A DNA stretch of 64,000 nt from Candidatus Woesearchaeota archaeon (GCA_016203445.1 JACQMS010000019.1:7473-71472), one strand, 5' to 3'; positions 4,377 to 63,690 are shown, numbered from the stretch's first letter. The notes: generated by a model from the sequence alone, not told the origin. Made by a program: numbers and translations.

Positions 4377-4403
4377 TTTCTCACCTTTTTTTTTTGTTAA
4401 ATA

Positions 4404-4622: not shown

Positions 4623-4623
4623 T

Positions 4624-6156: not shown

Positions 6157-6389
6157 AGTTCAACCCCAAAACACCTCAATAGAAGAGTTGGATTAATAAT
6201 TCTTTTTAATACTTTCGCAATGTTAAGCTCAATACTTCTCCGTTTTTGATTGCGTCGAGGCGTTATACCTTAGCGCACCAGCTCGGGAAGCAGTTGCGCT
6301 CAAGTACTGAACAACCTCTGCTTTGGCTTTTAGTAATAGTAAATTGCATTAATTTTGTAACACCAGTCTATGGAAAGTTTCCGACATTT

Positions 6390-10481: not shown

Positions 10482-10533
10482 GTAGCGTCTTTCTTAAGAA
10501 AGTTTTTTATACTTGCGCATTGCATGGTGATGT

Positions 10534-11909: not shown

Positions 11910-11929
11910 AAATTTGAAGAAATTGCATT

Positions 11930-35862: not shown

Positions 35863-36853
35863 GAAGTATATCTTTTTCCAGTACTGGATCCAATTCAATG
35901 CATCTTTTCTCGTGATGTTCTGCTCTGCTATTTTTTCCTAGAGCTCTTAATACATAGCTCAAGAATAGGTGTGTTGTTGCGTGTGCCTCATGGTAAAGCA
36001 GTGATTCTTCGAATGATTTTATTGCATGTGTGTAATCTTCTGATTTCATTAGCGTAATTCCTTGAAGGTATGCAACAAGGTATCCTTTACGTTCTATTAC
36101 TGCTTTTTGAAATAATGACTTTGCTTTCGTGAAATCTGCGTCCATAAGCGCTTTATATCCTTGGACCAGTAATCTTATGTATTTTGTGTCACTTATAGAT
36201 TCCTCTACGTGCTGTGATTCATACTCTATTCCTAAACGTCCATTCAAGTTCATTGCCAGGATTTGCTCTATCATTAATTCTTCTCTAATCGTTATTGGTA
36301 TATGCTGTTGCACTAACATTCCTTTTTCTTCTATAATCCCTGAAATGTGAATACTTCTAATATTATTAGAATTATTTAGTATTATTTCTAAGCACGCAAG
36401 CGTTTCGAGATGCGCAGTATCAAGGTCCATCGCTATTCCAGTTGATGTTATTTCTTCTGGTTTGAGCACTCTTCTTTTTCCTCCAAATGTTTCTATAACT
36501 GGTGTTACCCCTGTTTCTTGCGCGTATAATTCTATGAATCTTAAAGTTTTTACTTGTTCTCTTAATCTCTCGTTCTCATCGCCTTGCACTTTGTGAGGGT
36601 GTAAAATAATTTCTTGCAATCCTAGAGTGCGTGCAATTCTTGCCGCTTGGTAGTGCTGTTTTTTGAATCTTTCTTGTAGCGGTAGTCTTGGCCCATGCAT
36701 TGCTTTTACTCTTTCATTATTCACTAGACCTATTTCACACGCTTTTCCGTGAAGATCATATAACGCCAGTTCTACTAATTCTTCTGATTTTCCTAATTCT
36801 CTTTGGAATGATTCATAATCTATAAACGGTATAGTGTAAGTAACTATCATCAT
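35846..36853 (-). CDS. Xylose-isomerase-like TIM-barrel (sugar-phosphate isomerase/epimerase / AP-endonuclease-2 family) protein with C-terminal TPR repeats
   Basis: 'HGP…LHPH…MDLDTAHL' resembles the metal-ligand pattern of this TIM-barrel family. The C-terminal approximately 100 aa has TPR-like helices. Confidence 0.4.
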   Translation of the reverse strand: MMIVTYTIPFIDYESFQRELGKSEELVELALYDLHGKACEIGLVNNERVKAMHGPRLPLQERFKKQHYQAARIARTLGLQEIILHPHKVQGDENERLREQVKTLRFIELYAQETGVTPVIETFGGKRRVLKPEEITSTGIAMDLDTAHLETLACLEIILNNSNNIRSIHISGIIEEKGMLVQQHIPITIREELMIEQILAMNLNGRLGIEYESQHVEESISDTKYIRLLVQGYKALMDADFTKAKSLFQKAVIERKGYLVAYLQGITLMKSEDYTHAIKSFEESLLYHEAHATTHLFLSYVLRALGKNSRAEHHEKRCIELDPVLEKDILLTRTQ

Positions 36854-36910
36854 TAATGCCCCCGTATGAAGGGTTCCAACATTCTTTATAAATATTACCT
36901 TTTTAATTAC

Positions 36911-36967
36911 TCTCTGGGGATGTCAAGAATTGTCGGGCTAAAGCCCAGAGCGCGAGGTTGTTGATCT
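36911..36967. repeat. Hairpin repeat element, copy C
   Basis: 'GGATGTCAAGAATTGTCGGGCTAAAGCCCAGAGCGCGAGGTTGTTGATC' is about 80% identical to the 5' half of copy A, including the GGGCUAAAGCCC hairpin. Confidence 0.45.
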
Positions 36968-37010
36968 TCCTTCAATTTCATGCAAATGCTTTTATACTAT
37001 TCTTGTTTTT

Positions 37011-38048
37011 TTGACTTTCATGAATTGGGATGCTAGTATTAAAAGCGCGGGTCTTGTTGCATTTCTTGGCTGGTTTTTGTCGTGCCATCACCCTCATAAA
37101 GATTTTCACATTGTTGATTCTATTGATAACAGTGTTAATTTTACAGTATTAAAAGAGCCAGTTCCTTGCGACATTCCAATACTTGATAATAATAGCGTTA
37201 TATCTGTTGGTATAAATTTTCTTCGTAATAAAGAGTGGTCTAAGGCTTATGATGTTTTCTCGTATATGGATACTTCTTTAATGAACTCTTATGACGGAGC
37301 TTTTGTTTCTTGGGCTGTTGATTGGTGTTCTTTCAAAAAATTTTCTGGCACTTCTTTCGATATGGGTGATAGAACTCTTTCACTTGTTCAACATTTAAGG
37401 CCTCCTTCTACCGGTGATGGTGATTTTGAACATTTGGATATGTGTACTGTTCTTTTGGAGTCTCTTGTTGACGTTTTTCCAATGAATTATGTTTATCATG
37501 CCGACTTGGGCAAGTGTTATGCTATGCGTGAAGATTTTATTGGTGCTTCTAGCGAGTTTGTTAAGGCTGTTGATTTGTGGCCTACTGACGGGTTGGGTTT
37601 GTACGAGAGAGTTGTTAAGTCTTATATTGGTGCTGGAAGGATTCACAAAATTTTGGAGGTTTCATCAATGCTTGAGTGCGCAGATCCTACAATAGTTTCT
37701 GGACAAATTCTTGACCGTGTTGACTCTGTTTTATGGTCTGGTGTTTCTATAACTCATGATTCTTCGAATGTTGATGTTTGCAGGGATTTTGCAATTCTTT
37801 TTGATGCTCTTGGTGACAGGATGCTTTATCATGCGCGCGCGGCTCAGGCATTGAAGTACTATTGCCTTTCTGCAAGCAATAGGAATGTTCTTGGTGAAGA
37901 TGCTGTTTCTTACATTCGTGAAAAGTATAATGTTGTTAACGAGTCTTGTAATAGCGAGTTGAAACCTTTGCATGTCGTCTTCAAAAATTCTATGCGCGAT
38001 TTTCACGTGTCTCGTTCTGATGAACTATGCAAACTTTTAGGAGAGTGA
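37011..38048 (+). CDS. Hypothetical protein (345 aa), possible lipoprotein/secreted
   Basis: N-terminal hydrophobic 'LVAFLGWFLSC'. No confident domain. Confidence 0.35.
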   Translation: MTFMNWDASIKSAGLVAFLGWFLSCHHPHKDFHIVDSIDNSVNFTVLKEPVPCDIPILDNNSVISVGINFLRNKEWSKAYDVFSYMDTSLMNSYDGAFVSWAVDWCSFKKFSGTSFDMGDRTLSLVQHLRPPSTGDGDFEHLDMCTVLLESLVDVFPMNYVYHADLGKCYAMREDFIGASSEFVKAVDLWPTDGLGLYERVVKSYIGAGRIHKILEVSSMLECADPTIVSGQILDRVDSVLWSGVSITHDSSNVDVCRDFAILFDALGDRMLYHARAAQALKYYCLSASNRNVLGEDAVSYIREKYNVVNESCNSELKPLHVVFKNSMRDFHVSRSDELCKLLGE

Positions 38049-38098
38049 TTTTTTATGATTTGTGAAGATAGTAATAGTGTGAAAAATTAATAAGTGTC

Positions 38099-38356
38099 TT
38101 ATAGATATACATTTTCTCTGTTGTCAAAAGAAACTATTATTATTGTTTTTGTATCATAATTAATTCTGTAAAGTGCTCTGTATTTTCCTATTCTTATTCT
38201 GAATGTTGGTAATTCATAACCAGTAATTCTTTTTGAGTCGTGTGGAACTGGGTTTGTTTTCAGTAATTCTAACTTTCCAACAATTCTTCCGAATAGAATG
38301 TTCTCACATTTTTTCAAGAACTTTTCTGGTTGCTTATCTAACTTTATTTCGAACAT
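38099..38356 (-). CDS. relE: RelE/ParE-family toxin
   Basis: '…LKTNPVPHDSKRITGYELPTFRIRIGKYRALYRINYDTKTIIIVSFDNRENVY' is the classic RelE/ParE C-terminal pattern. Confidence 0.7.
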   Translation of the reverse strand: MFEIKLDKQPEKFLKKCENILFGRIVGKLELLKTNPVPHDSKRITGYELPTFRIRIGKYRALYRINYDTKTIIIVSFDNRENVYL

Positions 38357-38546
38357 TCTTCAAAACCTCTAAAGAAACCAGTTTCCCTTGTTTTTCATTC
38401 TTTAAACTTTCTTCAAGCAGAACTCTCTCTTCAGAACTAAGAATGGTATCCGCATCAACCATATGTTCCTTAATAACTTCTATCTCTCTGCTTAGAAAAT
38501 CTAATTTCTCCAGTATCTTGTTCTCTGCAACGCTGTCGGTGCTCAT
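38334..38546 (-). CDS. Putative antitoxin for the downstream RelE
   Basis: 70 aa, acidic and helical. Overlaps the toxin gene by 23 nt in the canonical antitoxin-first order. Confidence 0.45.
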   Translation of the reverse strand: MSTDSVAENKILEKLDFLSREIEVIKEHMVDADTILSSEERVLLEESLKNEKQGKLVSLEVLKNVRNKVR

Positions 38547-38634
38547 AGCGGTGGTATTGTTGCAAGTCTATTTAAACATTATCTTTTTTTCTAGTTAGGT
38601 ATTTGTGCCTGTCTCGGCTCGTTTCTGTGGTTGT

Positions 38635-41600
38635 TTAAGATGTGAAACTCACTCTTAATTTGTATGTCTTAGTGAACTCTCTATCTCCGCTTTGCAATTT
38701 CAGCACTAAATCTTGTTCACCTGCAATTGTTGGCGTGTATTTTGCTTCTATTGTTGTTGTGCCATCACCATTGTTTATTGCAGTTGATTGCGGTTGTATT
38801 GCCGTTGCAGAGCTTCCTATTGGACCGTTCACTGTTGAGCGCAAATTAATATTTTGTAAAGTAATTATTTTTGTTTTTATTTTAACCTCTTTGTTAATTG
38901 ATACTTCATAGATATTACTGTTCGCGGGATTTTGTTCGGGAATATTTTCGTCAACTAATAATTGTGGTTGTTCTATTATTGCTAATTCTGTGCTAGCAAC
39001 GCACTCTCTCAAATCTTCATTTGCAATATTATATCCGCACACCGTTCCAACATTGTTTACTCCTGTACCACAATTTTCTGTTTTTGTAATGCTCGAAGTA
39101 TCTCCACACCAGCATGGAGCGCTGTTTTGCCCTATGGCGCAATCTCTTATTGTGCTTCCTGATTGTTGCCCCGCATAATTTTGCGAGCATACCGCTTTGA
39201 ATAGCACCGTTTTTTCTTGTTCTTCATCAGTTACAGGGTCCAGAGTTCTTTGATGGTAGTTTGGCACATAGCCCCCTCCAGCGTTTGTTGCTATACTATC
39301 ATATATTTCGAACACTGCCTTCCACTGGGCTGGAGTTGTTTCGTACTGCTCGCACGCGTTTGCTACCGCTGTTGGTGGTATTACTCTTATGAATATGCTC
39401 CTGCTTGCTGGTATTTCTGTTAGTAATTGTTGAGGAAATGTTATTTTTATTCCTTTGAATGTTATTTGATTACTTACCAATTGTGATGTTCCTGTTGTTG
39501 GCTGTAATTGTCCTCCAATTGTCCAAAAGTCCGGAGCGTTATCTTCATCATCATCGTATGATCTCTTGTTTCCACCAGTTATACTATATATTGAGTACTT
39601 TAGATTTACTGCAGCATTCTTTATTTTTATCAAGAATTCTTCATTTGTTTGTATACTTCCTCCAACTATTTCTATCGTTCCTTGAGTATCCATTAATGCT
39701 CTTCTTTGAGCATTCAAGTTGTTGAACTCTACTTGTATGTTAGAGCTTCTAGTCCTGAAGTGCACATCTTTGTCCAGTGTTATTTCTTGACTTGTTCCTT
39801 CACTGTTAAGGTTATACTCTTGAAGTCCTCCTTCGTGGTTTACTTGTATAGGCATTAATGGTGCCTGCTTGTTCTTGTTAGTCTGCACAATATTATTGTT
39901 ATGATCATATATTGTGTATATCAACCATTTTGTGTCTTGAGTGAATAATCTTGAGCTGTCTTGTTGTGTTCCTCTAGATAATTGTACTGGTATGTTGAAA
40001 TTTATTTTTTGTCCCAGAGTAAACACTCCTTGAACAGCATTTTTTAGTGTTATATCCCCTCCAAATCTTGCTCCGTTGTAATCATCTATTCCTGAGTCGC
40101 ACCTGAACACTCCCGCGAATATGTCGAACTTGCATTGTATTGGCGCGTCAGTTGCTCCAGTTATTATTCCTCTTACTACATTGTCGCTTCTCGCCTCTCC
40201 AGTCCTCTCGTCAACCCATTGCCAGCTTAATACTGCCTTGTCATACCTGTAATTGCTTCCTCCTTCACCAGCTTGAATTGTGTGAATTATCTCGTCAGCG
40301 GCAGTAGTTCCTAACTGTTCGCCCTTTCTCAAACTTGTTTTTGATAATGGTACTCCTACTTTTTTCTCTCCAATAGCATAGCAATCACACTTTCCTCCGG
40401 GATACCCTTGTGATGGATCGCATTGAATACTATCAGAGCATACTAGTTCTAATTGAACAGTTATATCTCTGCCTGCAGTTAGTAATGGCGCGGTTCTGTA
40501 AGTCCACGTTGTCAACCCTTTAGGCTTTGTTGTTGGATCGAAGCTTATAAATTCTTTTCTTACGAATGGCAAGAATCCTATGGTTTTTGCGGGTTTAGAG
40601 TCTAGTTTTGCGTTTATTAATCCTTCCATATTGAAGTCCCACTCGCCGGTAAAAGCATACAAGCATGCCGCGTTCTGCAATTTCTTGTCTAAAAACATTG
40701 CTTTAAACACTTCATCCTGACCATCTTCAGATATTATATCTCTTTGTGTTTCTCTAAACCCTTCAATTACCGAACCTATGCCAGCCCCTGCATAATCAAG
40801 AAGTCCAGGTTCTGAATCAACAGGACTTCCTCCTTTACCAGGAACTGTTTTTGTTGGAACCCCGCACCGTACTAGCTCCCATAATAAATTGCACGCCGTT
40901 TCTGTTATTACTTCTTTGCATATTCCAGGGTCTGCGTCACCTGTTAGCTGGACGCTTTTCAAACAATCTCTAACTGCAGTCATCGTTCTTTTTACGGTGT
41001 TAACGTTTGAATATATTCCTGTAACGTACCCGCATTGCAGTGATGTTATTATCCCGTCATCAGGCCTTATTATGAATGTTGTATCCTTGTTACCTATTCT
41101 TTGTTTTACCTGGTCGTATATCGCTGTTGCGACTTCTTTATTACACCCTCCATCTTTTACTGTATCACAAAATTTGCTACTTTGATCAATAGTTCGGGCA
41201 ATCGAGAAATGATTGTATATTGCATTTATGCTAGCATCTCTTTTCTCTCCGAACATTTCTGTTGGTATTACTACTAGCGGTACATATTGAAGCTCGCTAT
41301 TTATGTTTGACGCTTCACCAGCATTAGCAGTTGTTCCTGTGAAACCCCCGCGCGCCGCCCCTCCAAGGGTTATCTCAAACTCTTTGGCAGTTTCATCGGT
41401 TGCAAAACTTGACAATATTCCAGAATTTGCTCCTATAGGCACTATCCTCCCTATTATTTCTGGCATGTCTTGAATCGTTGGCTCTTTAAGTCTTAACCCA
41501 GTAAAGGATGGAGTGAAATATTCAGGAGTAGCACTTAGAGCTCCTTCATCACACAACCCTTTGTTTTTGTATGATGCTCTGCAACTAAGCCCCAACCCGC

Positions 41601-44505
41601 TACTTGTAGAGCCATCTTTAGCATTCGTAACTTTTTCCAAATTTCCAGAGTTTTGCGCTCCTAAACATAAACTATGGTCCAGCTCGTTGAACCAGTCAGC
41701 GCCTTTAGAAAACCACCTGCATACAGGTCCGTACAATCTGTCATATTCTGCAGCGCAACATTTCGGATCTGCAGGGTGCAATCCCTTGCAATAAGTCTCA
41801 CCATTTGTTTCGTACAACTTGCTTATAGATTCATAATCAGTATCAGTTTTAATCGCTATTGGTTGAATTCCGTCAACCCCTTTAGCACCGCTGATTTTTT
41901 GAGTGTTAACCAAATTGTTAGTTCCGAAACTGCAACTGCTTCCAGTAAGATATTTTCCGTCTTTAACTGCCACTTCTTTTAACGCTTTCCCACTATTAGC
42001 TCTTATGTATGTTTGAAATGTTGGAGCGCTGGGCCCCGTAACTCTATAACATATGTTTCTCCTGTAATCTTTAACGCTCTCTCTATGTTCTAAAACGTCT
42101 TGGCATGATTTGCACGAATTAAGTTTTTTATCATCACCGCCTTGCCCGCCGAACGCTTCATCACACTTTCCTATACTAGCTATATCTTTAACGCTTGTCT
42201 TGGTTCCTGACAAACTTTTCAAAACATCTTTCAATCCCGGAGAGAACTCGCAAGCATACTTTTCTCTAATATTATCTACCAGTTCCCAAGCTCTAGTAGC
42301 GAAGCACGCGTAATAACCTACTTCTGTGGCCGTTTGCAATTGTTCTTCAGCGTGTTCTAAACCCTCTATTGCATGATCAAGATTTGTTACTGTTCTTTTA
42401 AGGAAGCTGTCGCTTATTATGCCGGGATCTATTTGATGATCTATCTCTACTTCGTACTCAAAGCATTCCGTTTGCTTTTCTCTAGGTAACGCCCTTCTGT
42501 CAGGCAGTTGTGCGTCCAACGTGGGATCTGTGGTCGTTATTTCTTGAGTTTGTTGATATTCTATGTCCAAAAATACTATTCCTTTGAAGCACCCACCGGC
42601 GCCCTTGCATTCTCCCTTTCTATTTTCTGATAATGCTCTTTCTTTTTCTGAAGTTGTTGCTCCATCTATTTTTGCGGGATCTGGAGCATTAATATTTAGT
42701 GTTATGCTCGCGGCTCCTTTGTCAGGCCTTCTTAATTTTACGTTGCCTACATCAAACCATTCCTGATCGTAATCTTTAAGCACGTCATCCGATAAACCTG
42801 TTGGCTTGAATGCTTTAACACTTAATATTTTTATGTTCTTGTTTATAGTTTCGAATGTTACCGTTTGAGTTATTTTTGGTATACCCTTCATTATCAATCT
42901 TGGTAGTAATATGTTTGGCATCACGTTGGATCTTTTAACAATTATCGTTCCTCCGCCGCATAAAGTTCTTACTACTTCTTGTTTTGGTGTTGTTGCAGTA
43001 TACCCCGCGCTGTCAGCAGCATATAATTCTACATCATTTTTCAGCCCGGTGTTTAGCTGCGCGCTCGCAGTGTTACCAGCAACATCAACTCTTGTTTTAC
43101 CTGTTAATGGTACAGTCATTGAAAATTCTCCGTTATCATTGGTGCCCGCAGTCTTCTCAACTTTTCCATTAATTTTAGCGCTTACTGATGCTTTCTTGTT
43201 CAACTTTCCTATTATTTTTATTTCAGGATTGTACGCGTACCTTAGATTGTTAAGGTTTGTTTTCTCAAATCTTAATGGTGTATTGTCATAAGTTATAATT
43301 CTTTCCTCAGCGTACTCGTTGCCTCCAGCATCCTTTAATTCTATTTTTATCTTGTTTTCTCCAGGTTGTAAGTTTATTATTTTGTCGAATGTTGTTGCTT
43401 CACCAATTGTCTCATTATTTATTTTTATCATTGTCTTTTCACTAATAGTTCCATTAACTCTTATTTTTGTTTCCTTGGTTATGCTTACGTCAGGAGTCCA
43501 TGATATGTTGGCTCCCGGAGGTGTAGAATCATATAGCGTAACAAATGTTTTTTTCTGTTTGAAAGAGTCAGCTGTTTCCAATATAATAGTGTTCACTCCC
43601 TCAACCAAGTTTATGTTGTTTATGCTGAATCTTCCGTCACTGTCAACCTTTTTTGCAGTCTTAAACTCTCCGTTTACAAACACATTTAATGTTATTCCTG
43701 CTCTAGTACTGCCCGTTATGGTTATAGTATTAGTGTTAACCCCTGCAGGTATTGTTGCATTAATTGTTGGACTTCCCGTAGAATAGCTTGAGAATGTTTT
43801 TTCCTGCGTAGTAATACAAGTATTGCTCGAGGCGCATGCAGTTATTGTGTACTTGTAAACCTTTTCGTTATTCGTGTTTAGAGTTATCGTGTGAGTTTTT
43901 GCTGGCGTCGCGCTTACTAGTATGTTCGTTGTTAGAGCTCCTATTCCATAAGTTATATTTGTAATACTTTCTATTGTTGTTTGAAAAGTTATTATAGTCT
44001 TCCCATCCTGAATTTGTTCGTTCTGGCCTGTTGCCTGTAAATCAACACCATTTGTTTGTGATTGCGTGCCTGCATTTGCAGTGCTTCTCGTTCCTGTTGT
44101 CGTAAAACTATAATACTGCCCGTTATTGTCTGAAACTTCCGCCCTCCCCCTTTGTGATCCTTCGGTTATTATAGTGAACATTCTGTAGTAATATTTTGTT
44201 CCAGACTGCAAATCTTTTAGTACCAGTTTGTGCTGTTTTGTTAATGTTGTTCCTGATAAAGTTTTGTAATTCCTATTGCTAAAGTCTTCTCTTGACTGCG
44301 CGTAATATATTGTTGAGCTCGATTTTTCTTGAGTTATAAATTCTATCGTCGCATTGTTGTCGCCTATTGCTGTTACGTAATCATTTTTCTGCTCTATATT
44401 AACACCCATTACTGCTCCAATAATTCCTATTGATAGTATTAATGATAGTGCTAAAATTATGGTAATAATGGACATATTCCGCGATTTGTTGAAGTTATTG
44501 CTCAT
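38635..44505 (-). CDS. Giant secreted/surface protein (1956 aa) with FN3/Ig-like modules and a Cys-rich central region; second gene of cassette 2
   Basis: N-terminal TM/signal 'MSIITIILALSLILSIGIIGAVMG'. FN3-like 'STIYYAQS…GTKYYYRM'. Big/Ig-like modules such as 'ITITGSTRAGITLNVFVNGEFKTAKKVDSDGRFSI'. More than 40 Cys in the middle third. ATGA overlap with the upstream gene. Confidence 0.6.
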   Translation of the reverse strand: MSNNFNKSRNMSIITIILALSLILSIGIIGAVMGVNIEQKNDYVTAIGDNNATIEFITQEKSSSTIYYAQSREDFSNRNYKTLSGTTLTKQHKLVLKDLQSGTKYYYRMFTIITEGSQRGRAEVSDNNGQYYSFTTTGTRSTANAGTQSQTNGVDLQATGQNEQIQDGKTIITFQTTIESITNITYGIGALTTNILVSATPAKTHTITLNTNNEKVYKYTITACASSNTCITTQEKTFSSYSTGSPTINATIPAGVNTNTITITGSTRAGITLNVFVNGEFKTAKKVDSDGRFSINNINLVEGVNTIILETADSFKQKKTFVTLYDSTPPGANISWTPDVSITKETKIRVNGTISEKTMIKINNETIGEATTFDKIINLQPGENKIKIELKDAGGNEYAEERIITYDNTPLRFEKTNLNNLRYAYNPEIKIIGKLNKKASVSAKINGKVEKTAGTNDNGEFSMTVPLTGKTRVDVAGNTASAQLNTGLKNDVELYAADSAGYTATTPKQEVVRTLCGGGTIIVKRSNVMPNILLPRLIMKGIPKITQTVTFETINKNIKILSVKAFKPTGLSDDVLKDYDQEWFDVGNVKLRRPDKGAASITLNINAPDPAKIDGATTSEKERALSENRKGECKGAGGCFKGIVFLDIEYQQTQEITTTDPTLDAQLPDRRALPREKQTECFEYEVEIDHQIDPGIISDSFLKRTVTNLDHAIEGLEHAEEQLQTATEVGYYACFATRAWELVDNIREKYACEFSPGLKDVLKSLSGTKTSVKDIASIGKCDEAFGGQGGDDKKLNSCKSCQDVLEHRESVKDYRRNICYRVTGPSAPTFQTYIRANSGKALKEVAVKDGKYLTGSSCSFGTNNLVNTQKISGAKGVDGIQPIAIKTDTDYESISKLYETNGETYCKGLHPADPKCCAAEYDRLYGPVCRWFSKGADWFNELDHSLCLGAQNSGNLEKVTNAKDGSTSSGLGLSCRASYKNKGLCDEGALSATPEYFTPSFTGLRLKEPTIQDMPEIIGRIVPIGANSGILSSFATDETAKEFEITLGGAARGGFTGTTANAGEASNINSELQYVPLVVIPTEMFGEKRDASINAIYNHFSIARTIDQSSKFCDTVKDGGCNKEVATAIYDQVKQRIGNKDTTFIIRPDDGIITSLQCGYVTGIYSNVNTVKRTMTAVRDCLKSVQLTGDADPGICKEVITETACNLLWELVRCGVPTKTVPGKGGSPVDSEPGLLDYAGAGIGSVIEGFRETQRDIISEDGQDEVFKAMFLDKKLQNAACLYAFTGEWDFNMEGLINAKLDSKPAKTIGFLPFVRKEFISFDPTTKPKGLTTWTYRTAPLLTAGRDITVQLELVCSDSIQCDPSQGYPGGKCDCYAIGEKKVGVPLSKTSLRKGEQLGTTAADEIIHTIQAGEGGSNYRYDKAVLSWQWVDERTGEARSDNVVRGIITGATDAPIQCKFDIFAGVFRCDSGIDDYNGARFGGDITLKNAVQGVFTLGQKINFNIPVQLSRGTQQDSSRLFTQDTKWLIYTIYDHNNNIVQTNKNKQAPLMPIQVNHEGGLQEYNLNSEGTSQEITLDKDVHFRTRSSNIQVEFNNLNAQRRALMDTQGTIEIVGGSIQTNEEFLIKIKNAAVNLKYSIYSITGGNKRSYDDDEDNAPDFWTIGGQLQPTTGTSQLVSNQITFKGIKITFPQQLLTEIPASRSIFIRVIPPTAVANACEQYETTPAQWKAVFEIYDSIATNAGGGYVPNYHQRTLDPVTDEEQEKTVLFKAVCSQNYAGQQSGSTIRDCAIGQNSAPCWCGDTSSITKTENCGTGVNNVGTVCGYNIANEDLRECVASTELAIIEQPQLLVDENIPEQNPANSNIYEVSINKEVKIKTKIITLQNINLRSTVNGPIGSSATAIQPQSTAINNGDGTTTIEAKYTPTIAGEQDLVLKLQSGDREFTKTYKLRVSFTS

Positions 44506-46508
44506 TCTATCACCGGCTTGTTAGTTTGAGTTATTGTTCCTTCATTAAGGAGCTTTGCCATTCCTTCATCATCATCTGCAGGGTAGTATTCTACCAGCGT
44601 TAATTTTATCGTGTCTTTGCCTTCAATTTCTGAACTTTTTATTTTCCATTCTTGGTTCACGAACCCTCCTCTTAATTTTCCGAAAGTTGTTAAGTATGAT
44701 TCTATTTCGTAAGTGTGGGTTCCTTCAGCTATACTTATTGTGTTGTCTCTTGGATAATTTATGTATTGTGAGTATTCTGGGTGGTGCAACGCTATAGTTG
44801 CATTGTTTGTTCTTCCCAACTCTTCTTCAGGACCCCATCTGAACTCTTCACTTCTGTCTGAAAAATAAGATTTTTTCACTATTTTCAAATTCATTACTCT
44901 TATTGCCTGCATTGGCAATAACAATTCTTTCTGGTCTGTATCTAACTGCTCGCTTGCGGGAAGATATCCCTCTTTTTCTAGAGTTATTGTTGGATTGCTG
45001 CACGCTGACGGTAGGTATGTTACAAGCTGATATGTTCCACTACCGTCGCTCTTCGTGCTCCCCAGATTGCATGTTCTTCCAAAGCACTCGTACGATACGT
45101 TCACATCTTTTATGGGCGTTTTTATTGGAAGTCCTTCCTCGCTTCCCAATCCTTGGACCGTTATTATTTCGTCACCAGTTTCTCTGCAGAATTCTTCGTC
45201 TTCAACATATCCCTGAAAGTTTTTCCACGGTTTTGGATCTCTGAATCCTTCGTTATTTCTTATAAGTATAGGTGTTGCAAAACTGAAAGTGAACCCTTCA
45301 CCCAAAAATGCTTTTTCGTCCTGCAAAGTTATAAGTACAGGTATTCTCATCGTGTATGCAAAGTGATAAGTGTTAAGGCATAAAAAGTTCAGTTTTGGTA
45401 TAGCACTTTTTTTCTGGCTCGTTAATTTTCCTCCATCGCTAGGATTTATTGTTATATCCATATCCCATTCGGGGTAGTATTGTATTGAAACTCCTACTGG
45501 CTGTGATGATTTAACCCCCATATCTAAGTATAAGTGCGCATAATCATAAAAATCTTCAGGGAGATTTTCAGGAATTCTTCCTTCACCAACGTCGTTGAAT
45601 GCCGCCCTGAAACCTTCAATTCCTTCAGCATCATCACTTGTGTACATGTTAGATACTTTTTTGTACTCTTTCTCAGAATTCTCGAAAGGTGTTGTCAAAG
45701 TGTTTTTTATTCTTATTCTTGGCAAAAGCGTTTGCATCATCGTTTTTATCTCGTTCTCTACATCTTTAACTCTCCAAGTTTTAGTGTCACAACTGAAGTC
45801 TAAGCCATTAACAGGAGTGTTAGGGTTTGCGCTCAACAACCCTATTACTGCTTTTTCCAACTTGTTGTTTTCATTTTCTGATTTTTGTATAACTCTTGCA
45901 GTTTCCAATATACTTTTCAGTTTTACTGGCATTGTTGTTTCGAATACTTCTATTTTTGGCACTCCTTCAACAAGGTCTAGTGTTGTTGGCATAAATATTT
46001 TTATTATTACGTTTTCTTCACCAAGTATTGCAGCCACGCTTACGTTGCCTTCTTGCCTGGCTCCATAATTTTCGAAGCCTTCAAAATTGTTTATGCATTC
46101 CGGAAGGTTGTTTTCTATTACTCTTTCGAGTTCCGCCTGAACTTCTTCAATAGTTGGAGCTCTGTCTTCACCTTTGTGGTACCATAGTGGTGTTCTTATA
46201 AGTTTTCCGGGATCTTGAAAAACATATGCTGAAGGGTCCCTCTCTATATTTCTAGGAATGTTTATGAATCCTCCCTGCAACCCTATATCTATCAACGCGT
46301 CCTTTCCTACCTGTTCCGCACAGCTTTTCACAAAGTCGTAAACTGGCCTCACATTTGACGGTATTGACTGTACTGCTATCATCTGCTGTTTTGTCACTAT
46401 ATAGAATGTTGCTCCCATAACCATCAGCACTGCCAAGCCAATTATTATGAAGAATGATGTTTGCCCTTTTCCTGAATTCCTGAAAAAACTTTTTTCTTTT
46501 TTCATCAT
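44502..46508 (-). CDS. Membrane-anchored 668-aa protein, paralogue of the 16031-18232 product
   Basis: N-terminal TM 'SFFIIIGLAVLMVMGATFYIV'. Conserved blocks shared with the 733-aa protein. Confidence 0.55.
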   Translation of the reverse strand: MMKKEKSFFRNSGKGQTSFFIIIGLAVLMVMGATFYIVTKQQMIAVQSIPSNVRPVYDFVKSCAEQVGKDALIDIGLQGGFINIPRNIERDPSAYVFQDPGKLIRTPLWYHKGEDRAPTIEEVQAELERVIENNLPECINNFEGFENYGARQEGNVSVAAILGEENVIIKIFMPTTLDLVEGVPKIEVFETTMPVKLKSILETARVIQKSENENNKLEKAVIGLLSANPNTPVNGLDFSCDTKTWRVKDVENEIKTMMQTLLPRIRIKNTLTTPFENSEKEYKKVSNMYTSDDAEGIEGFRAAFNDVGEGRIPENLPEDFYDYAHLYLDMGVKSSQPVGVSIQYYPEWDMDITINPSDGGKLTSQKKSAIPKLNFLCLNTYHFAYTMRIPVLITLQDEKAFLGEGFTFSFATPILIRNNEGFRDPKPWKNFQGYVEDEEFCRETGDEIITVQGLGSEEGLPIKTPIKDVNVSYECFGRTCNLGSTKSDGSGTYQLVTYLPSACSNPTITLEKEGYLPASEQLDTDQKELLLPMQAIRVMNLKIVKKSYFSDRSEEFRWGPEEELGRTNNATIALHHPEYSQYINYPRDNTISIAEGTHTYEIESYLTTFGKLRGGFVNQEWKIKSSEIEGKDTIKLTLVEYYPADDDEGMAKLLNEGTITQTNKPVIE

Positions 46509-46558
46509 TTTTTTACGCTGTCATATTTTTTTTACAGTTTTATATTTACATTTTATAT

Positions 46559-47380
46559 TTATAATACATTATTTTCTTTAATCGCTCTTGCATGAACTCT
46601 TATCGCTGAGAGCCACGGGGATATCAATATTGCGAATGTGAGAATCCATTGAGTTGATTCACTGCCTTTTTGGACGTAAGGCGCGAGCAGTGATAACAGT
46701 GCTATAAGTATTAATGCTGCTGTGTATGATGGAAGCATTTTGTAAATTTTAGCAGTGCTTTTTACAACTTCTCTGAATGCTTCATTGATTTTTTGGTGTT
46801 CTGAAAACCCTTCGTGAAGCCATATAGTCAAATGTAAGTATGCCGCTAGCGGTGCGAGCATGATTATGTAATAAATAATCGTTCCTATAATATAATTTAT
46901 TGAGTATATTACTCCTATTATTGGTATAATCGCGGGCAGTATTGCATATATGTGAATTGCGCCAATGATAAGCCACGCTATAGTCCACAACGTGTTAAGC
47001 CAGAAGAATCTTCCGTAATCAATTTTTTTACTCGTTATAATTCTTAGTATTATCCCTCTTGTGAAAGTGTATGATACCAAGTATGCTATAATTAGCGCGA
47101 TTAGCAATATTCCTGCTCTTATGAAGAACGATTGTAGCGCCACATTAGCTATCGATGCCTGACCCAAATCTCCTCCGGATACTGCATCACTTACTTGCAC
47201 TAGTTTTGATAATGCTTCGTTAATATTAGAGCTGAACAAGTTTAAAGCGTATAGAACTACCGTGAAATGTACCGCATCAAAAATCCATGATGCCAAGAAT
47301 TCTCTGTACTTTTTTCCTGTGTCCATTAACGATTTTAACAGTTTTTTGACGTAATGACCACCCGAGTGTTCATGCTTCAT
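46559..47380 (-). CDS. Polytopic membrane protein (hypothetical), first gene of cassette 2
   Basis: 273 aa with about 6 TM helices. Confidence 0.45.
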   Translation of the reverse strand: MKHEHSGGHYVKKLLKSLMDTGKKYREFLASWIFDAVHFTVVLYALNLFSSNINEALSKLVQVSDAVSGGDLGQASIANVALQSFFIRAGILLIALIIAYLVSYTFTRGIILRIITSKKIDYGRFFWLNTLWTIAWLIIGAIHIYAILPAIIPIIGVIYSINYIIGTIIYYIIMLAPLAAYLHLTIWLHEGFSEHQKINEAFREVVKSTAKIYKMLPSYTAALILIALLSLLAPYVQKGSESTQWILTFAILISPWLSAIRVHARAIKENNVL

Positions 47381-47446
47381 ATTAACCCCTTTTTATTGAC
47401 GAAATTTCGTCGTTGAGTATATAAATATTGCGCATGTTTTGGCTTA

Positions 47447-47755
47447 AAATGTCAGAAACCGCCATTCATAACATTCTCGCTTAAGTTTGAAGTGAGAAAG
47501 CGGTTTCTGAGCATGATCAAGAACCGCAGTTCTTGACATCCTAAAAATGTCGGAAACTTTCCATCGGTTTGTAACTGGTAGCTGAAGCAAACCATGCAGT
47601 GAATATGGAAAGTTTCTGAGCATGATCAAGAACCACTGTGCGCTATTGCGTTAAGCAACATACCGCTGGTCTTTGACTAGTGGTTCTTGACATCCGCGAA
47701 TCAGAAAGCGTCTGATCAAACTCCACACTTTAGTGTGGAGTAGGACGCTTTCCGC
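47447..47755. repeat. Hairpin repeat cluster (copies B1 and B2 plus a terminal hairpin); candidate structured non-coding RNA
   Basis: Two units, each built from AAAATGTC(A/G)GAAAC…GTTTCTGAGCATGATCAAGAACC…GGTTCTTGACATCC inverted-repeat pairs. A final GAAAGCGTC…CCACACTTTAGTGTGG…GACGCTTTC hairpin follows. Motifs are shared with copies A and C. Confidence 0.45.
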
Positions 47756-47789
47756 AGATTTTTATGATTAGTAATTGAATCGCTAACCA

Positions 47790-48797
47790 TTACTCCGTGC
47801 CTTCCCAACTGCCTGTTTTAGGATCATATAATTCTTCGTACGCTATGTGCGTAAATTTTGAGTTTCTTAATAGATCTTCTGATTTCTTCTTTAGTATAAT
47901 TTTTATATCTATAATTTCCCCTTTTTCTGCCGCGGTGAGCAATTGTTCGGTTTTTGATGGTTCTACCTGCGCCACGTTTAGAAATCCTTCGCGAGTCTTG
48001 TAAACCTTTAGCATAGTAGTGTTTTTGTAAAGTTCGTTTGCGCAAAGTTTTTTTGTGGTTATATAATAATAATCTCTGTCGTTGTTGTAAGGTAAATATT
48101 CTACTCTTGTTTCTATTATTAGCGGTTGTAGTGATGTCATTGTTCTTCTTATGGCGTGAATTCCCTGCTGATCCGTTAATACTTTTGGGCAATAATGCTT
48201 CAAATTTTTTCCTACTTTTTCTTTGAACCTTTTCCATACATGTTGCGCGTTTGTTGCCCTGTTTTTGTATTCAAAAATGCAGGGAATTATTAAAGGATTT
48301 TTTTTTAAAGTTTTTAATTGTGTCAGCGCCTCGCACTTTTTGAAGTGTTCTTCTATTTCCTTGTCATAATCTTTTTCTGAAGCAGTTCCATCAAAATTGT
48401 ATATTGTTTTTCCTGTTGTTAAAAAATTCATTTTTTTGTCTCTGTATGGCAGTAGTATAGTGTTTAGTTGCTTTCCGCTTTTGTAATCATGGAGTTTTAC
48501 TGAGTATGTACACCATTTTTTTAGGTTTTGTGGCAGCTCTCCCCAGCATTGGTGAGCCGTTAGTCCTATTGCTTCGTAGTAAAATGCCGGAAAGTAAAAA
48601 AATTGAGGTCTCTGTTCCGGGTTTGGTCCTTTGAGGGTGTTCATCCAGTGCTGTATTGTTTTCACGCTTACTTTCTCATCGTAGACTTTTATGCTTTTTG
48701 ATATTTCTCTGTAGCTTAATACTCTTGGTTGTTGTGTTAATTGTTGTATGAAATTTATTAGTTTTGGGTGCGTTTCTGTGAGAGTCATCTTTCTCAT
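47790..48797 (-). CDS. Hypothetical Lys-rich protein (335 aa), possible N-terminal HTH
   Basis: ORF only. Confidence 0.4.
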   Translation of the reverse strand: MRKMTLTETHPKLINFIQQLTQQPRVLSYREISKSIKVYDEKVSVKTIQHWMNTLKGPNPEQRPQFFYFPAFYYEAIGLTAHQCWGELPQNLKKWCTYSVKLHDYKSGKQLNTILLPYRDKKMNFLTTGKTIYNFDGTASEKDYDKEIEEHFKKCEALTQLKTLKKNPLIIPCIFEYKNRATNAQHVWKRFKEKVGKNLKHYCPKVLTDQQGIHAIRRTMTSLQPLIIETRVEYLPYNNDRDYYYITTKKLCANELYKNTTMLKVYKTREGFLNVAQVEPSKTEQLLTAAEKGEIIDIKIILKKKSEDLLRNSKFTHIAYEELYDPKTGSWEGTE

Positions 48798-48907
48798 TGC
48801 AGTAATAACAACTATTTAAATGTTTACTTTTTCGTCAATAAAGGTTAACAGATTTATTTATATTCCATTACTATATTTCTTCAATAAAAGGTATTAAAGG
48901 TGCCATT

Positions 48908-49150
48908 ATGCTATTAAAAAGCTCAAGAATAGTAATAATTTGTTGTGCAGTGCTCCTTGCAGTCTTCATTTTGTTGTCACTTGCAACCAATCAGAATATA
49001 ACTGGTAGCGCTTCAGGAATTCCTAAGGATTGCACTGCTTCGTGCAGAGAGAGGTCTTTAACTATTGAAGATTTTGAGAGGTGCATTAACGAGTCTTGTT
49101 CGGTGATAAACAGCGAACCCCCAAGCAGTATAACAACGTACGTGAAATGA
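48908..49150 (+). CDS. Small secreted Cys-containing protein (hypothetical)
   Basis: Signal-like 'IVIICCAVLLAVFILLSLA' and four Cys in the mature part. Confidence 0.3.
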   Translation: MLLKSSRIVIICCAVLLAVFILLSLATNQNITGSASGIPKDCTASCRERSLTIEDFERCINESCSVINSEPPSSITTYVK

Positions 49151-49185
49151 TGATAAGAAGAAAAACTTCATTGCAGTCAAATCAT

Positions 49186-49635
49186 TCACAATTTTTCTGT
49201 TTCATTCAACATTTCTTTTATAAGTTTTATTGCTTGTTCGGATTTTTTGAGTATGTGTATTCCTTCCTCAAAATTTATCGTTTTTCCATAATAATTCAAA
49301 CCATTGCGTATAAGTCTTAATTCATCGAATCTATCGCCCATGTTTGAATTCTTCATTACTTCTTTTAAGAACGCGGTGTAACACTCATGATTATATATTT
49401 TATATCCTTTTCGCAAAGCTATGCACTCTAATATTTCTCGTAGTACATCATAGAAAAGTGTGATCTTTCCATAATACCTTTCATCAGCCATTGAGTTGGC
49501 ATCGTCAAGTTTTCTTTCTGCAACATCCAGTATAGATTTAACTTTATTCTCATCACTCGACGTTTCTTTAACCAATCTTGATAATTTACAAGATGTCCAA
49601 TCCATGCTACCATCTCCCAAAAAGTATGCATCCAT
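49186..49635 (-). CDS. HEPN-domain protein
   Basis: 'DELRLIRNGLNYYG' is a HEPN R-x4-6-[HY] region. Overlaps the upstream NTase gene by 29 nt. Confidence 0.6.
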   Translation of the reverse strand: MDAYFLGDGSMDWTSCKLSRLVKETSSDENKVKSILDVAERKLDDANSMADERYYGKITLFYDVLREILECIALRKGYKIYNHECYTAFLKEVMKNSNMGDRFDELRLIRNGLNYYGKTINFEEGIHILKKSEQAIKLIKEMLNETEKL

Positions 49636-50119
49636 TTAATATATTTTTGAGTAAGTTTTCATTTTTACAGTCCTGCATACTTGAAAATTTTATTAAGTGT
49701 ATTTTTCTGTTTATCTTCTTTTCATATTTTTGAAGAGGCAATTCATTTTCTGAAGGAGTGAAAACTGCGATGTCTATATCCGAATTTTTGCTTATTTCTG
49801 CCTTGGCAAAAGAACCATAAAGAATGATGATTGGGCTTATTAACTTTTCATTCAAAAAATTTATTGTTCCTGTCTTCTCAATTTTTTGCCTCCAGTATAT
49901 TCTTTGTAGGTGTACAAATTCCGCATTATCTCTATTCGCATAGTATAATACATGGCCTTTATCTATTTCTTTATTTAAAATTTTTTCTTTTCTTAAATTC
50001 TTAAGCAGTTTTGATGCAGATGGCGGGCTTATGTTTCTTAATCTTGCATATTCTCTTATATGAATTCTGCGATAGTTATCTTCAAAAAAAAGCTTCAAAT
50101 CGTTAAATAATTTTAACAT
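49607..50119 (-). CDS. Winged-HTH + minimal nucleotidyltransferase fusion (second copy)
   Basis: 'IREYARLRNISPPSASKLLKNLRKEKIL' is the wHTH. 'LYGSFAKAEISKNSDIDIAVF' is the NTase motif. Confidence 0.65.
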   Translation of the reverse strand: MLKLFNDLKLFFEDNYRRIHIREYARLRNISPPSASKLLKNLRKEKILNKEIDKGHVLYYANRDNAEFVHLQRIYWRQKIEKTGTINFLNEKLISPIIILYGSFAKAEISKNSDIDIAVFTPSENELPLQKYEKKINRKIHLIKFSSMQDCKNENLLKNILNGCILFGRW

Positions 50120-50224
50120 GTGTTAATAATAATTAACAACTGTTTATAAATCTTCCTTCCTTTATATGCCCGCCCCTTAGTATTACTCCATCAATGCTTC
50201 TTGCCATTTTTTTGCCTCCATAAT

Positions 50225-51475
50225 CTAAATAGTAAACACTGGCGGCCTGTTCTTGTTCTTAACGGTTACGCTCAGCTTCTTTACAACGTTATTTTGTCCG
50301 TCGCTGCCATTTATTACAACTTCGTAAGTTCCTGCATCGTCATAATTCGTTTCCTTAGTATTAGTAGTCATCCATCCAGAGTATATCAGTGTTACTTTGT
50401 CACCTTCAGGGTCTGTAATCGTTGGGTTTATAGTAACCGTTTCTCCTTCTTCAACAACAATATCCGCCACTTCTATTGTTGGCGGGTTGTTTTTCTTCTT
50501 AACTGTTAGAACGAATGTTGCAGTGTTGCTTAACACGCCATCACTAACATTAACTTCTACATTGTAAACTCCCGCATCACCCATTTTTGTTTCCCATAAC
50601 CCATCAGTTCCTAAAGGCTTTCCAAAGTTTAGTTTTATAGCATCCCCGTCAGGGTCCTGAGCATTGGGCGTTACTAAAACCTTTTCTCCTTCAGTAACAA
50701 TTATATTTTGTAATGCACCTATTACTGGAGGCCTGTTAACATTCATAATTTGTACAGTAACATTTTTTGAGCTTGTTGTTTCCCCGTCACTTGCAGTTAT
50801 CGTCACTGTGTACGTTCCCGCATCGTCATAATCTGTTGTTTGAGAGTTTGTAGTCATCCACCCATTGAATGTTATAGTAACACTTTTATTTTCCGGGTCT
50901 ATTGCCGTTGCATCCAATCGAACTGCTTCGCCCTCTCTTACTGTTATAATTTCTGGAGCGGTTATTACTGGTACCATGTTTGATTGTGTTATCGTTAGAG
51001 TTATCGTTTTATTTACAACATTTGTTCCATCGCTTACAGTTATCAAGACGTTATAATTTCCAGCATCACCTATTTTAGTCTTCCAGCCTCCAGTGCTGTT
51101 TAGTGGACTGCTGAATGATACTGTCAGCTTGTCACCGTCAGGATCAGTTACTGTTGGTGTTATCTGAACTAGCTCTCCTTCCTTGAAAGTGTGCAATTGT
51201 TGTGTTTGCCCTACTGGTTGTTGAACTATTAGCGGAGTTTCTATAGCTTCTATCGCTGGTGTTTCAGTTGTTTCGTTTTCAATGATCTCTATAACTTGCG
51301 GAGTTTCTTCAGTAGAATTTTCTTCGATGACCGCGCCTCCCGTTATTGGAGCCAGTTCCCCGCTGTCGAAATTTATCGGAGTGCTGTCGGGGCAGACTAT
51401 TTTCTGCGCCTGGACGCAAGATGTCAGAAATATTAAAACCACTAATAGTGATGTAATCACCAATGCTTTTTTCAT
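50225..51475 (-). CDS. Secreted adhesin-like lipoprotein with four cadherin/Ig-like repeats (DPxxD Ca-binding-like motifs)
   Basis: Signal plus lipobox 'LIFLTSC'. Roughly 90-aa repeats of the form 'PVITAP…VREGE…DPENK…GTYTVTITASDG'. The motifs 'DPDGD' and 'DPEGD' recur. Confidence 0.6.
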   Translation of the reverse strand: MKKALVITSLLVVLIFLTSCVQAQKIVCPDSTPINFDSGELAPITGGAVIEENSTEETPQVIEIIENETTETPAIEAIETPLIVQQPVGQTQQLHTFKEGELVQITPTVTDPDGDKLTVSFSSPLNSTGGWKTKIGDAGNYNVLITVSDGTNVVNKTITLTITQSNMVPVITAPEIITVREGEAVRLDATAIDPENKSVTITFNGWMTTNSQTTDYDDAGTYTVTITASDGETTSSKNVTVQIMNVNRPPVIGALQNIIVTEGEKVLVTPNAQDPDGDAIKLNFGKPLGTDGLWETKMGDAGVYNVEVNVSDGVLSNTATFVLTVKKKNNPPTIEVADIVVEEGETVTINPTITDPEGDKVTLIYSGWMTTNTKETNYDDAGTYEVVINGSDGQNNVVKKLSVTVKNKNRPPVFTI

Positions 51476-63535: not shown

Positions 63536-63690
63536 AAAGAAATTGCCTGAAAGTTCGCTATCCACACGGCAAGCCGATGTGGTATTACGCGAACTTTCTC
63601 GCTTCGCGACCGGCAATTTCTAATTTCAAAATTGGGTTACAGAAAATCGTGGCAAGCCACGGGACATTAAACCCAATTTTGAAATAAAAC
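63536..63690. promoter_or_regulatory. Nested-hairpin element in the lysS/trpS divergent intergenic region; candidate structured RNA
   Basis: Stems AGAAATTGCC/GGCAATTTCT and TGAAAGTTCGC/GCGAACTTTC enclose CCACAC-GGCAAGCC-GATGTGG. A second stem-loop follows, TTCAAAATTGGGTT…CGTGGCAAGCCACG…AACCCAATTTTGAA. Both hairpin tips display GGCAAGCC. Confidence 0.35.

Follow-up and report, generated by a model that had tools for sequence, protein, structure and literature searches.

Introduction

Among the described systems that most resemble the sequences analyzed in this work are the repetitive extragenic palindromes (REPs) of Enterobacteria and Pseudomonas, organized in bacterial interspersed mosaic elements (BIMEs) and REPIN-RAYT systems; these are short palindromes dispersed over intergenic spacers, in which two related hairpin subtypes alternate in tandem clusters with conserved linkers, and which are non-coding, lack target duplications and are patchily distributed between genomes. 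One passage of PMC3733652 gives, as a criterion for REPs, a GTAG (or CGTC) tetranucleotide conserved at one end of the palindrome. The palindrome-associated transposable elements (PATEs) derived from insertion sequences (ISs) of the IS200/IS605 type carry two similar subterminal hairpins in a fixed order as their sole cis requirements, with neither terminal inverted repeats in the DDE sense nor target duplications. The hairpin-forming miniature inverted-repeat transposable elements (MITEs), such as Correia/NEMIS of Neisseria, BOX and RUP of Streptococcus, and ERIC, are 50-300 bp long, near-palindromic throughout and modular (boxA-B-C), have terminal inverted repeats and insert into intergenic DNA beside promoters and stop codons. 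Here we describe a family of palindromes first met as a hairpin-rich array at positions 47447-47759 of a 64,000-nucleotide stretch of DNA (hereafter, the window) from Candidatus Woesearchaeota archaeon (GCA_016203445.1, JACQMS010000019.1:7473-71472), a family that probably behaves as non-autonomous mobile DNA.

The family shares with REP/BIME clusters all the features listed above except the terminal tetranucleotide, its two hairpin subtypes alternating, in the array, as A2-TCATGC-B2-CATTTTTAGGATG-A1-TCATGC-B1. With PATEs it shares the two similar hairpins in fixed order and the lack of target duplications and of DDE-type termini, and the recognition of hairpins on single-stranded DNA would explain, in both cases, a conserved hairpin foot with a few flanking bases. 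With MITEs it shares size, modularity, intergenic insertion, presence/absence polymorphism at a syntenic site (between a Zn-ribbon and an NYN gene) and terminal inverted repeats, which here read (A)TGTCARRAAC ... GTTYYTGACA(T). The genomes of DPANN archaea are tiny and gene-dense, and are thought to hold very few mobile elements.

A five-hairpin array with a common frame

The array fills the spacer between the minus-strand open reading frames (ORFs) 46559-47380 and 47790-48797 and consists of five adjoining hairpins which, on the minus strand, follow one another in the order C, A2-TCATGC-B2, a spacer, A1-TCATGC-B1 and CATTTTAAG (Table 1). Neighbouring hairpins are 6-13 nt apart and their interiors measure from 4 to 41 nt. 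The frame common to the family can be written as TG-TCAAGAAC[x]GTTCTTGA-TCATGM-TCAGAAAC[y]GTTTCTGA-CA, x and y being from 3 nt to over 50 nt long; the arms are TCAAGAAC/GTTCTTGA in the A hairpin and TCAGAAAC/GTTTCTGA in the B hairpin, and the doublets are preceded by TG and followed, each of them, by CA. The stems run on beyond the conserved 8-mer through extensions (CCGC, TTTCCAT, CACT and others) that are specific to each copy and yet complementary. Both arm words are over-represented in the window, TCAGAAAC occurring 11 times and TCAAGAAC 14 times against 3.7 expected for either.

The array folds at -122.9 and -122.0 kcal/mol on its two strands, compared with -79 +/- 5 kcal/mol for dinucleotide shuffles (z = -8.5 and -7.8), none of 100 shuffles being as stable. 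These data bear out much of the first-pass annotation, which, from the sequence alone, had described a non-coding region made almost entirely of inverted repeats, separating two same-strand genes and containing the largest cluster of repeats found elsewhere in the window. Indeed, every inverted repeat quoted there was located in the sequence, and further copies exist at 4407-4519 (two hairpins), 63538-63685 (three variants) and 6369-6391 (a half copy). The same annotation had taken the 61-aa ORF called inside the repeats (47444-47629) to be most likely spurious, and this is in agreement with a search of 5.8 billion proteins, which returned no homologue and no candidate with even three common 5-residue words.

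Further copies in the same genome

The genome of the window organism harbors at least five family sites in about 66 kb, all of them intergenic. The doublet at 4407-4519, which has the same arms, linker and flanks as the array, lies between the stop codon of a Zn-ribbon ORF (4521-4523, minus strand) and an NYN gene (3858-4376, minus strand); being itself on the plus strand, it is inverted relative to its neighbours in comparison with the main array. The half copy at 6369-6391 abuts the stop codon of the ORF 6390-7265. In the cluster at 63538-63685, a hairpin AGAAATTGCC...GGCAATTTCT encloses a second one, GAAAGTTCGC...GCGAACTTTC, and a third, ATTTCAAAATTGGGTT...AACCCAATTTTGAAAT, stands beside them; their interiors bear GGCAAGCC tips similar to those of A-type loops. 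Judging from this similarity of arms and tips, the cluster would also belong to the family.

The copy located outside the window (locus L123, Table 1) is upstream of a 491-aa ORF and its loop is nearer to that of L060, a locus of another genome, than to those of the in-window copies. The organism is present in the sequencing runs SRR12113383 and SRR12113384. A separate observation concerns the short-read unitigs (Logan) of the same or a sister organism, which always end in or beside hairpin elements (L110 1-60, L112 1150-1208, L123 1-20 and 5880-5912, L113 1-20), the sites being the B1 loop, hairpin C, the A-B junction of the out-of-window copy and the B loop of 4407-4519. This suggests either a heterogeneity of the elements in the population or a problem in assembling or sequencing palindromes.

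The family in other genomes

A pattern spanning the A-B junction, with 17 specified bases, gave 98 matching stretches in a collection of species-representative genomes; since so short a pattern is met by chance, about 87 of them are single chance matches in bacterial contigs. The full two-hairpin frame was present in the remaining 11, and all 11 are archaeal (four Woesearchaeota, one Nanoarchaeota, two annotated as "archaeon" and four contigs from three low-GC metagenome-assembled genomes (MAGs) assigned to "Methanosarcinales"). A longer pattern gave nine metagenome matches (seven distinct), all nine with the frame; in the viral collection neither of the two pattern matches had it, both being due to chance, so that no viral carriage was found. 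The frame thus occurs in 18 loci of other DPANN-type contigs, between unrelated housekeeping genes and in every orientation. The linker TCATGM is found in all 18, but it formed part of the search pattern. The loci range from 32 to 54% GC, and hairpins with exact arms number 33 in 102 kb of family loci versus 2 in 672 kb of chance-match control loci.

No Pfam family is enriched or recurrent among the 74 ORFs flanking the copies, which code for ribosomal proteins, aminoacyl-tRNA synthetases, TGT, CTP synthase and similar proteins, and the copies sit between tandem, convergent and divergent gene pairs. This DPANN palindromic repeat family appears to be undescribed, no account of it having been found in the literature and no Rfam family matching it, and the array at 47447-47759 is its largest local array.

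The content of the loops, which we refer to as cargo, is highly variable, measuring 3 nt in L026, L048 and L066 and about 55 nt in other loci. In a Woesearchaeota contig (L089, 4180-4405) the arms of hairpin A, TGTCAAAACCAC/GTGGTTTTGATCA, lie around about 190 nt formed by six smaller hairpins with like arms (TCAGAAGC, TCGGAAAC, TCAGGAAC, TCAAAAAT and others), that is, the family is nested in its own loop. The interior of B1 ("type I" cargo) is homologous to that of the hairpin at 4458-4516 and to those of L038 and L060; the loop content of the 4407-4519 doublet reaches z = 19 versus shuffles in the comparison with the latter two loci, with which it has no flanking gene in common. The interior of B2 resembles type I cargo that has been flipped ("type II", common to B2 and L032), and indeed the cargo of these two copies aligns with type I only in the flipped orientation. 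In the metagenome locus L104, a tip found elsewhere in hairpin A sits in hairpin B, the cargo having been swapped between positions.

Two further recurrences were observed. A hairpin module CCATCGGTC-NNN(N)-GACCGATGGCAT is common to two otherwise unrelated metagenome contigs (L101, about 4020-4050, reverse strand; L104, about 4400-4450), free-standing beside a doublet in one and as hairpin A cargo in the other, which suggests a pool of exchangeable hairpin tips. Moreover, L026 (95-200) and L048 (5490-5600), from one "Methanosarcinales" MAG with a GC content of 32-33%, have in common a longer repeat unit of about 110 bp, which adds to a minimal doublet (with 3-nt loops) a small upstream hairpin and a closing stem CGGG(TGA)AATGTCA/TGACATTCCCG; the low GC content of these contigs raises the question of whether they might be mis-binned DPANN DNA.

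Insertion at the Zn-ribbon/NYN junction

The junction occupied by the doublet at 4407-4519 was compared in seven contexts of NYN homologues from five different relatives (L116, L117/L118, L119/L120, L121 and L122). All five have the same gene order (Zn-ribbon, NYN, thioredoxin or triose-phosphate isomerase), and the distance from the Zn-ribbon stop to the NYN start is -4 to +16 nt (L116, L117, L119, L121 and L122). In the window the corresponding spacer is 144 nt long (4377-4520); it is taken up for the most part by the 113-bp doublet, which starts one base past the stop codon. Since the two genes abut in the five relatives and the element lies between them only in the window, the doublet was inserted in this lineage. 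The approximately 100 kb of sequence from these contexts contain one doublet only, with variant arms TCGGAAWT (L119, 6509-6557). A threshold of E <= 1e-20 gives 7374 homologues of the NYN protein itself, with 60-70% identity in many cases. As for the main array, the 273-aa protein encoded downstream of it has one homologue, whose 1.6-kb contig begins just beyond the expected position of the element.

The first-pass annotation had proposed to look in related genomes for stems conserved through compensatory substitutions, and had linked its interpretation to conservation in such genomes. The stems are not kept at orthologous positions, the element being absent from this junction in the five relatives; hence, conservation fails for position. 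It does hold for sequence, in that other genomes contain the frame, and some of the loop contents, at positions that are not syntenic.

One candidate for a target duplication (8/9), TTTATT(T)AA, is recognizable in AT-rich sequence at 4407-4519, and no consistent duplication was found at about 18 other copies.

The gene trio itself, in the form of a Zn-ribbon protein of 30-60 aa, NYN and thioredoxin, is strongly conserved (window 3484-4621; L116-L122). The closest NYN homologue (71% identity) is carried by a 14.5-kb contig (L114) that also codes, at 10437-12146, for a 569-aa protein with sigma-70 regions 2, 3 and 4, which is unexpected in an archaeon; this contig may be bacterial (for instance, from the candidate phyla radiation), or the sigma-70 gene may be the result of a transfer.

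RNA gene or DNA palindrome

The hairpin-rich region had been compared, in the first-pass annotation, to a structured RNA gene, and the modules might indeed be small hairpin RNA genes or RNA-level processing units, the 300-bp region being a polycistronic cluster of them; the basal helix (UCARRAAC/GUUYYUGA with its flanks) would be bound or cleaved by a protein, and the variable upper stems and loops would represent the functional cargo. Several data would be accounted for in this way: pairing is preserved although each copy has a different stem extension, genomes of 32-54% GC retain the same frame, type I cargo has been preserved in four genomes and shows some compensatory changes, homologous cargoes read on the frame strand have C-UNAA-G apical tetraloops in common, and no 5' flank is as common as the 3' flank CA-TTT(T/C). 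Nevertheless, we consider this explanation unlikely, the comparison with a single RNA gene not being supported by the organization of the region, in which self-contained modules of a dispersed repeat are lined up in tandem.

As far as known RNAs are concerned, Rfam at gathering score recognized two tRNAs only in the whole window; at E <= 10 no covariance model, of the kind that an Infernal scan would use, matched anything in 47300-47900, and the only match in 4300-4650 was a chance one to a snoRNA (E = 9.8). ARAGORN found no tRNA or tmRNA in the array region. An RNA under selection would be expected to have more G-U than A-C pairs, and no such excess is seen: the 411 stem pairs comprise 389 Watson-Crick, 13 G-T and 9 A-C pairs. 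The two strands fold equally well, the difference in folding energy over 15 elements averaging 0.65 kcal/mol, with the frame strand better in nine of the 15. In six type I B hairpins analyzed with RNAalifold, 5 of the 21 pairs were changed on both sides, and the covariation term was unfavourable (+2.03). No TATA-like box at a constant distance was apparent, by eye, in the 5' flanks of 20 copies, and a scan for bacterial-type promoters and terminators flagged no module in the array region. Lastly, the copies occur in both orientations relative to neighbouring genes, the cargo is flipped in two of them, many have loops of 3-4 nt and so no cargo, and the element is missing at the syntenic site in the five relatives. 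The features of the array fit a strand-symmetric palindromic DNA that moves and rearranges, rather than a strand-specific RNA.

Mode of dispersal

The array is composed of modules of a dispersed palindromic family of Woesearchaeota-type DPANN archaea, and we suggest, with moderate confidence, that this family behaves as non-autonomous mobile DNA, in a REP/BIME-, PATE- or MITE-like manner. Such DNA would be expected to be patchily spread, to have several diverged copies in one genome and to show half copies and nesting, as is the case here. Each unit is a DNA palindrome with a conserved foot (TG-TCARRAAC ... GTTYYTGA-CA) and a distal part that is copy-specific but self-complementary; A-B doublets joined by TCATGM can be repeated in tandem or nested in one another's loops, and the family has, on this interpretation, been inserted, in either orientation, into intergenic spacers of unrelated housekeeping genes, remaining patchy among relatives and leaving decayed half copies.

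The data demonstrate the family itself, its frame with the conserved hairpin foot, its dispersal, an insertion polymorphism and the lack of strand asymmetry; the way in which the family moves can be outlined in conditional terms. The most likely route would start with the formation of the two hairpins on single-stranded DNA, whose conserved foot might be recognized by a hairpin-specific enzyme acting in trans, for example a Y1 (HUH) transposase of the IS200/IS605-RAYT type, hairpin A taking the role of the left end and hairpin B that of the right end of a cargo-less element. Recognition of single-strand hairpins would explain why only the stem foot and the flanking dinucleotides are conserved, why consistent target duplications are lacking and why insertion occurs beside or inside existing copies. 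The absence of consistent duplications, the conservation of foot and TG/CA only, the fixed order of the hairpins with a 6-nt linker and the presence of copies beside or inside older ones argue for the recognition of folded single-stranded hairpins, as at IS200/IS605 ends and in REP/RAYT systems, and against a MITE of the DDE type. An enzyme of this kind would be available in the phylum, since K07491 (REP-associated tyrosine transposase) was reported as the sole transposase KEGG orthology entry with strict hits in 256 Nanobdellota proteomes (bioRxiv 10.64898/2026.05.13.725050). The scanned ORFs of the window and the loci examined yielded no Y1 gene, so that the enzymatic step is hypothetical. 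In addition, palindromes give rise to hairpins in any read-through transcript, of either strand, and could secondarily contribute to the stability, processing or termination of RNA.

Several points weigh against the interpretation as mobile DNA. The mobilizing enzyme is purely inferred: the window ORFs scanned include no transposase, whatever its type, a tblastn search with an IS200 TnpA (an approximate query) found nothing in 20 loci, no autonomous IS with the same ends was found in about 270 kb of archaeal sequence examined, and the gene flanked by two copies in L104 codes for CTP synthase, not for a transposase. The variable material is in the hairpin loops, whereas in IS200/IS605 derivatives it lies between the two hairpins, and the GTAG/CGTC tag of most bacterial REPs is absent. 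The 8/9 duplication at 4407-4519 would instead fit a MITE of the DDE type, the other copies having none. Furthermore, the frame hardly differs between genomes of 32-54% GC, and identities of about 80-85% are reached by some loop contents in genomes with no synteny, which fits horizontal spread and, equally, purifying selection on a host function. The invariance of linker and B arms is in part a matter of ascertainment, as both were in the search patterns, and the insertion polymorphism is documented at one site (Zn-ribbon/NYN).

A different role for a hairpin-specific enzyme can also be imagined, although we regard it as doubtful: the two-hairpin frame might be the cis-partner of a vertically inherited, domesticated DPANN enzyme, a counterpart of REPIN-RAYT with exchangeable cargo. 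In that case, the cargo modules (type I/II tips, CCGGGCTAAAGCCCGG, CCATCGGTC..GACCGATGG) would be shuffled, flipped and nested by the enzyme. On a bolder reading, the frame could be a processing scaffold that sets the loop hairpins free as small RNAs.

Another possibility, to which we assign a rather low probability, is that the palindromes are host cis-elements acting in DNA or in read-through transcripts, whose clusters arose by local duplication; they might serve as terminators or insulators in either direction, protect the 3' ends of mRNAs, or bind chromatin or topology proteins, and such functions would be compatible with a mobile origin. The elements are in fact strictly intergenic and fill whole spacers, are often a few nt from a stop codon (window 4519 versus the stop at 4521-4523; L068; window 6369-6391), are lengthened in several copies by A runs and T runs in the flanks (AAAATG...CATTTT) and keep their frame in divergent genomes. 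However, there is no need for a terminator between divergent gene starts, which is the position of about four copies; five relatives that lack the element have the Zn-ribbon and NYN genes side by side or overlapping, and copy density is very different between related genomes; in addition, the consensus terminator scan flagged no module, which is weak evidence, the scan being of bacterial type.

The integron attC sites have R''/R' boxes, RYYYAAC ... GTTRRRY, with extrahelical bases, an unpaired central spacer and cassette ORFs between sites, and function as folded single strands. That the hairpins are single-strand recombination sites of this kind (cassette-less, as in CALIN) or sites of another recombinase, the flipped cargo being the outcome of site-specific inversion, is very improbable: their size (19-70 nt), their imperfect inverted repeats with a conserved outer part and an AAC/GTT core inside the arms, the highly variable centre or terminal structure and the apparent flip/flop of cargo recall attC, but the arms here are TCARRAAC ... 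GTTYYTGA and not GTTRRRY, the stems are fully paired with neither extrahelical bases nor an unpaired central spacer, there are no ORF cassettes between sites and no integrase or recombinase in the window ORFs scanned, and the evidence of flipping is weak (z 4.7-5.5, short sequences).

Other candidates were considered and rejected. An H/ACA-like guide RNA, suggested by the "ACA" that comes after hairpin B, was rejected by inspection, as the ACA is inside the extended stem, K-turn and K-loop are lacking, the lower stems are invariant, and the lower stem with the 3' pocket measures about 22 nt and not the 14-16 nt expected of H/ACA. Nor did the conserved words fit, by inspection, a C/D box, a hammerhead, a bulge-helix-bulge or a K-turn. 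A replication origin with ORB-like GAAAC words is at odds with the presence of several loci in 64 kb, with neither an AT-rich unwinding element nor orc1/cdc6 nearby. Restriction-site avoidance was dismissed, GATC and CATG occurring at 0.72 and 0.76 of expectation (a mild depletion) and TGATCA and TCATGA not being under-represented. A CRISPR array consists of direct repeats of constant length with unique spacers of similar length between them; here, Tandem Repeats Finder (TRF) found no tandem array, the units are inverted rather than direct, at variable spacings of 3 to 54 nt.

Differences from known systems and significance

The features of REPs are only partly present, and for this reason we do not file the element as a REP but describe it as working like one. 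In contrast to REP/BIME systems, there is no GTAG/CGTC, the flanks being TG...CA and the arms beginning with TCARRAAC; only the stem foot is conserved, the distal stem and the loop (from 3 to more than 50 nt) being able to hold further hairpins; the copies are thinly to moderately spread here, with about one cluster in 15-30 kb, and none was seen with an adjacent RAYT gene; the host is archaeal. Unlike PATEs, the hairpins are a constant 6 nt apart with variable material inside their loops, no conserved target of 4-5 nt is evident 5' of the element, and neither TnpA nor TnpB was found in the examined loci (with an approximate tblastn query). Unlike MITEs, the copies of one genome do not have their internal sequence in common, a target duplication (8/9) exists at one copy only, and the archaeal sequence examined (about 270 kb) revealed no parent IS with matching ends.

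With its frame preserved in genomes of 32-54% GC, the family can separate genes that are translationally coupled, and it appears to break short-read assemblies. It would therefore bear on annotation (spurious ORFs such as 47444-47629), on the quality of MAG assemblies and on the evolution of intergenic DNA. If a cognate Y1 enzyme exists, REP/RAYT-type biology would be extended to Archaea, and a compact hairpin-recognition module would become available for study.

Table 1. Modules of the array, further copies of the family in the same genome, and the ORF called within the array. Positions refer to the window unless a locus is named.
Feature	Position	Strand	Description
ORF, spurious	47444-47629	-	61 aa, TTG start, reads through hairpins
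Hairpin B1	47452-47510	-	Arms TCAGAAACCGC/GCGGTTTCTGA; stem 11-12 bp, loop 35-37 nt (type I cargo); final module in the minus-strand frame orientation, CATTTTAAG coming next
Linker A1-B1	47511-47516	-	TCATGC, 6 nt, conserved
Hairpin A1	47517-47536	-	Minimal form TCAAGAAC-CGCA-GTTCTTGA; stem 8 bp, loop 4 nt
Spacer between the two A-B doublets	47537-47549	-	CATTTTTAGGATG
Hairpin B2	47550-47619	-	15-bp stem TCGGAAACTTTCCAT/ATGGAAAGTTTCTGA (plus strand), one G-T; interior 40 nt
Linker, second copy	47620-47625	-	TCATGC
Hairpin A2	47626-47690	-	Arms TCAAGAACCACT/AGTGGTTCTTGA; stem 12 bp; interior 41 nt
Hairpin C	47692-47759	-	Degenerate family member; outer stem ATCCGCG/CGCAGAT
Hairpin C, arms	47701-47712; 47744-47752	+	Canonical TCAGAAAGCGTC (47701-47712), partner GACGCTTTC (47744-47752)
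Hairpin C, inner hairpin			CTCCACAC-TTTA-GTGTGGAG
Second locus	4407-4519	+	One A-B doublet; same arms, linker and flanks as the array
Second locus, parts	4410-4451; 4452-4457; 4458-4516	+	A (4410-4451), linker TCATGA (4452-4457), B (4458-4516); flanks AAAATG and CATTTT
Solo half copy	6369-6391	+	ATGGAAAGTTTCCGACATTTCTA; 22/23 bases match the B2 right arm and 3' flank (minus-strand orientation)
Variant cluster	63538-63685	.	Three hairpins, divergent intergenic region
Further type I B hairpin	L123 1-70, about 1.5 kb before window position 1		TCAGAAACCGTCATCTTACTCCGGAAGCATGGAGATTGCGAATGGCGGTTTCCGA, then CATTTCAG

Genomic setting of the window

The window ORFs code, among others, for SRP54, a class II aminoacyl-tRNA synthetase, dihydrofolate reductase (DHFR) and an Lhr helicase, and two tRNAs are also present. 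A phage origin of this DNA was rejected, as these genes and the assignment to a Woesearchaeota MAG indicate a cellular genome; the phage collection gave neither a megablast nor a tblastn match, and PHROG matches were nearly nil.

Upstream of the main array, two overlapping small ORFs (49186-50119), one of them with a nucleotidyltransferase (Polbeta/NTP_transf_2) domain, could represent an MNT-type toxin-antitoxin pair, and a MazE-like antitoxin domain is encoded at 1644-1970. The cumulative GC skew climbs from the start of the window, peaks near 38 kb (about 36000-40000) and declines afterwards; the peak coincides with a switch of coding strand, the long ORFs lying on the plus strand at 16031-27683 and on the minus strand at 38635-51475, and this switch could be related to replication or purely to transcription. 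Very large ORFs occur in two runs, at 16031-27683 on the plus strand (733, 1074 and 2077 aa) and at 38635-46508 on the minus strand (1956 and 668 aa). They have almost no Pfam or PHROG matches, the sole exceptions being Glucodextran_B and, in the 1956-aa protein, a match to the N-terminal domain of purple acid phosphatase below the Pfam gathering cut-off; they are probably giant surface proteins, of a kind common in DPANN archaea.

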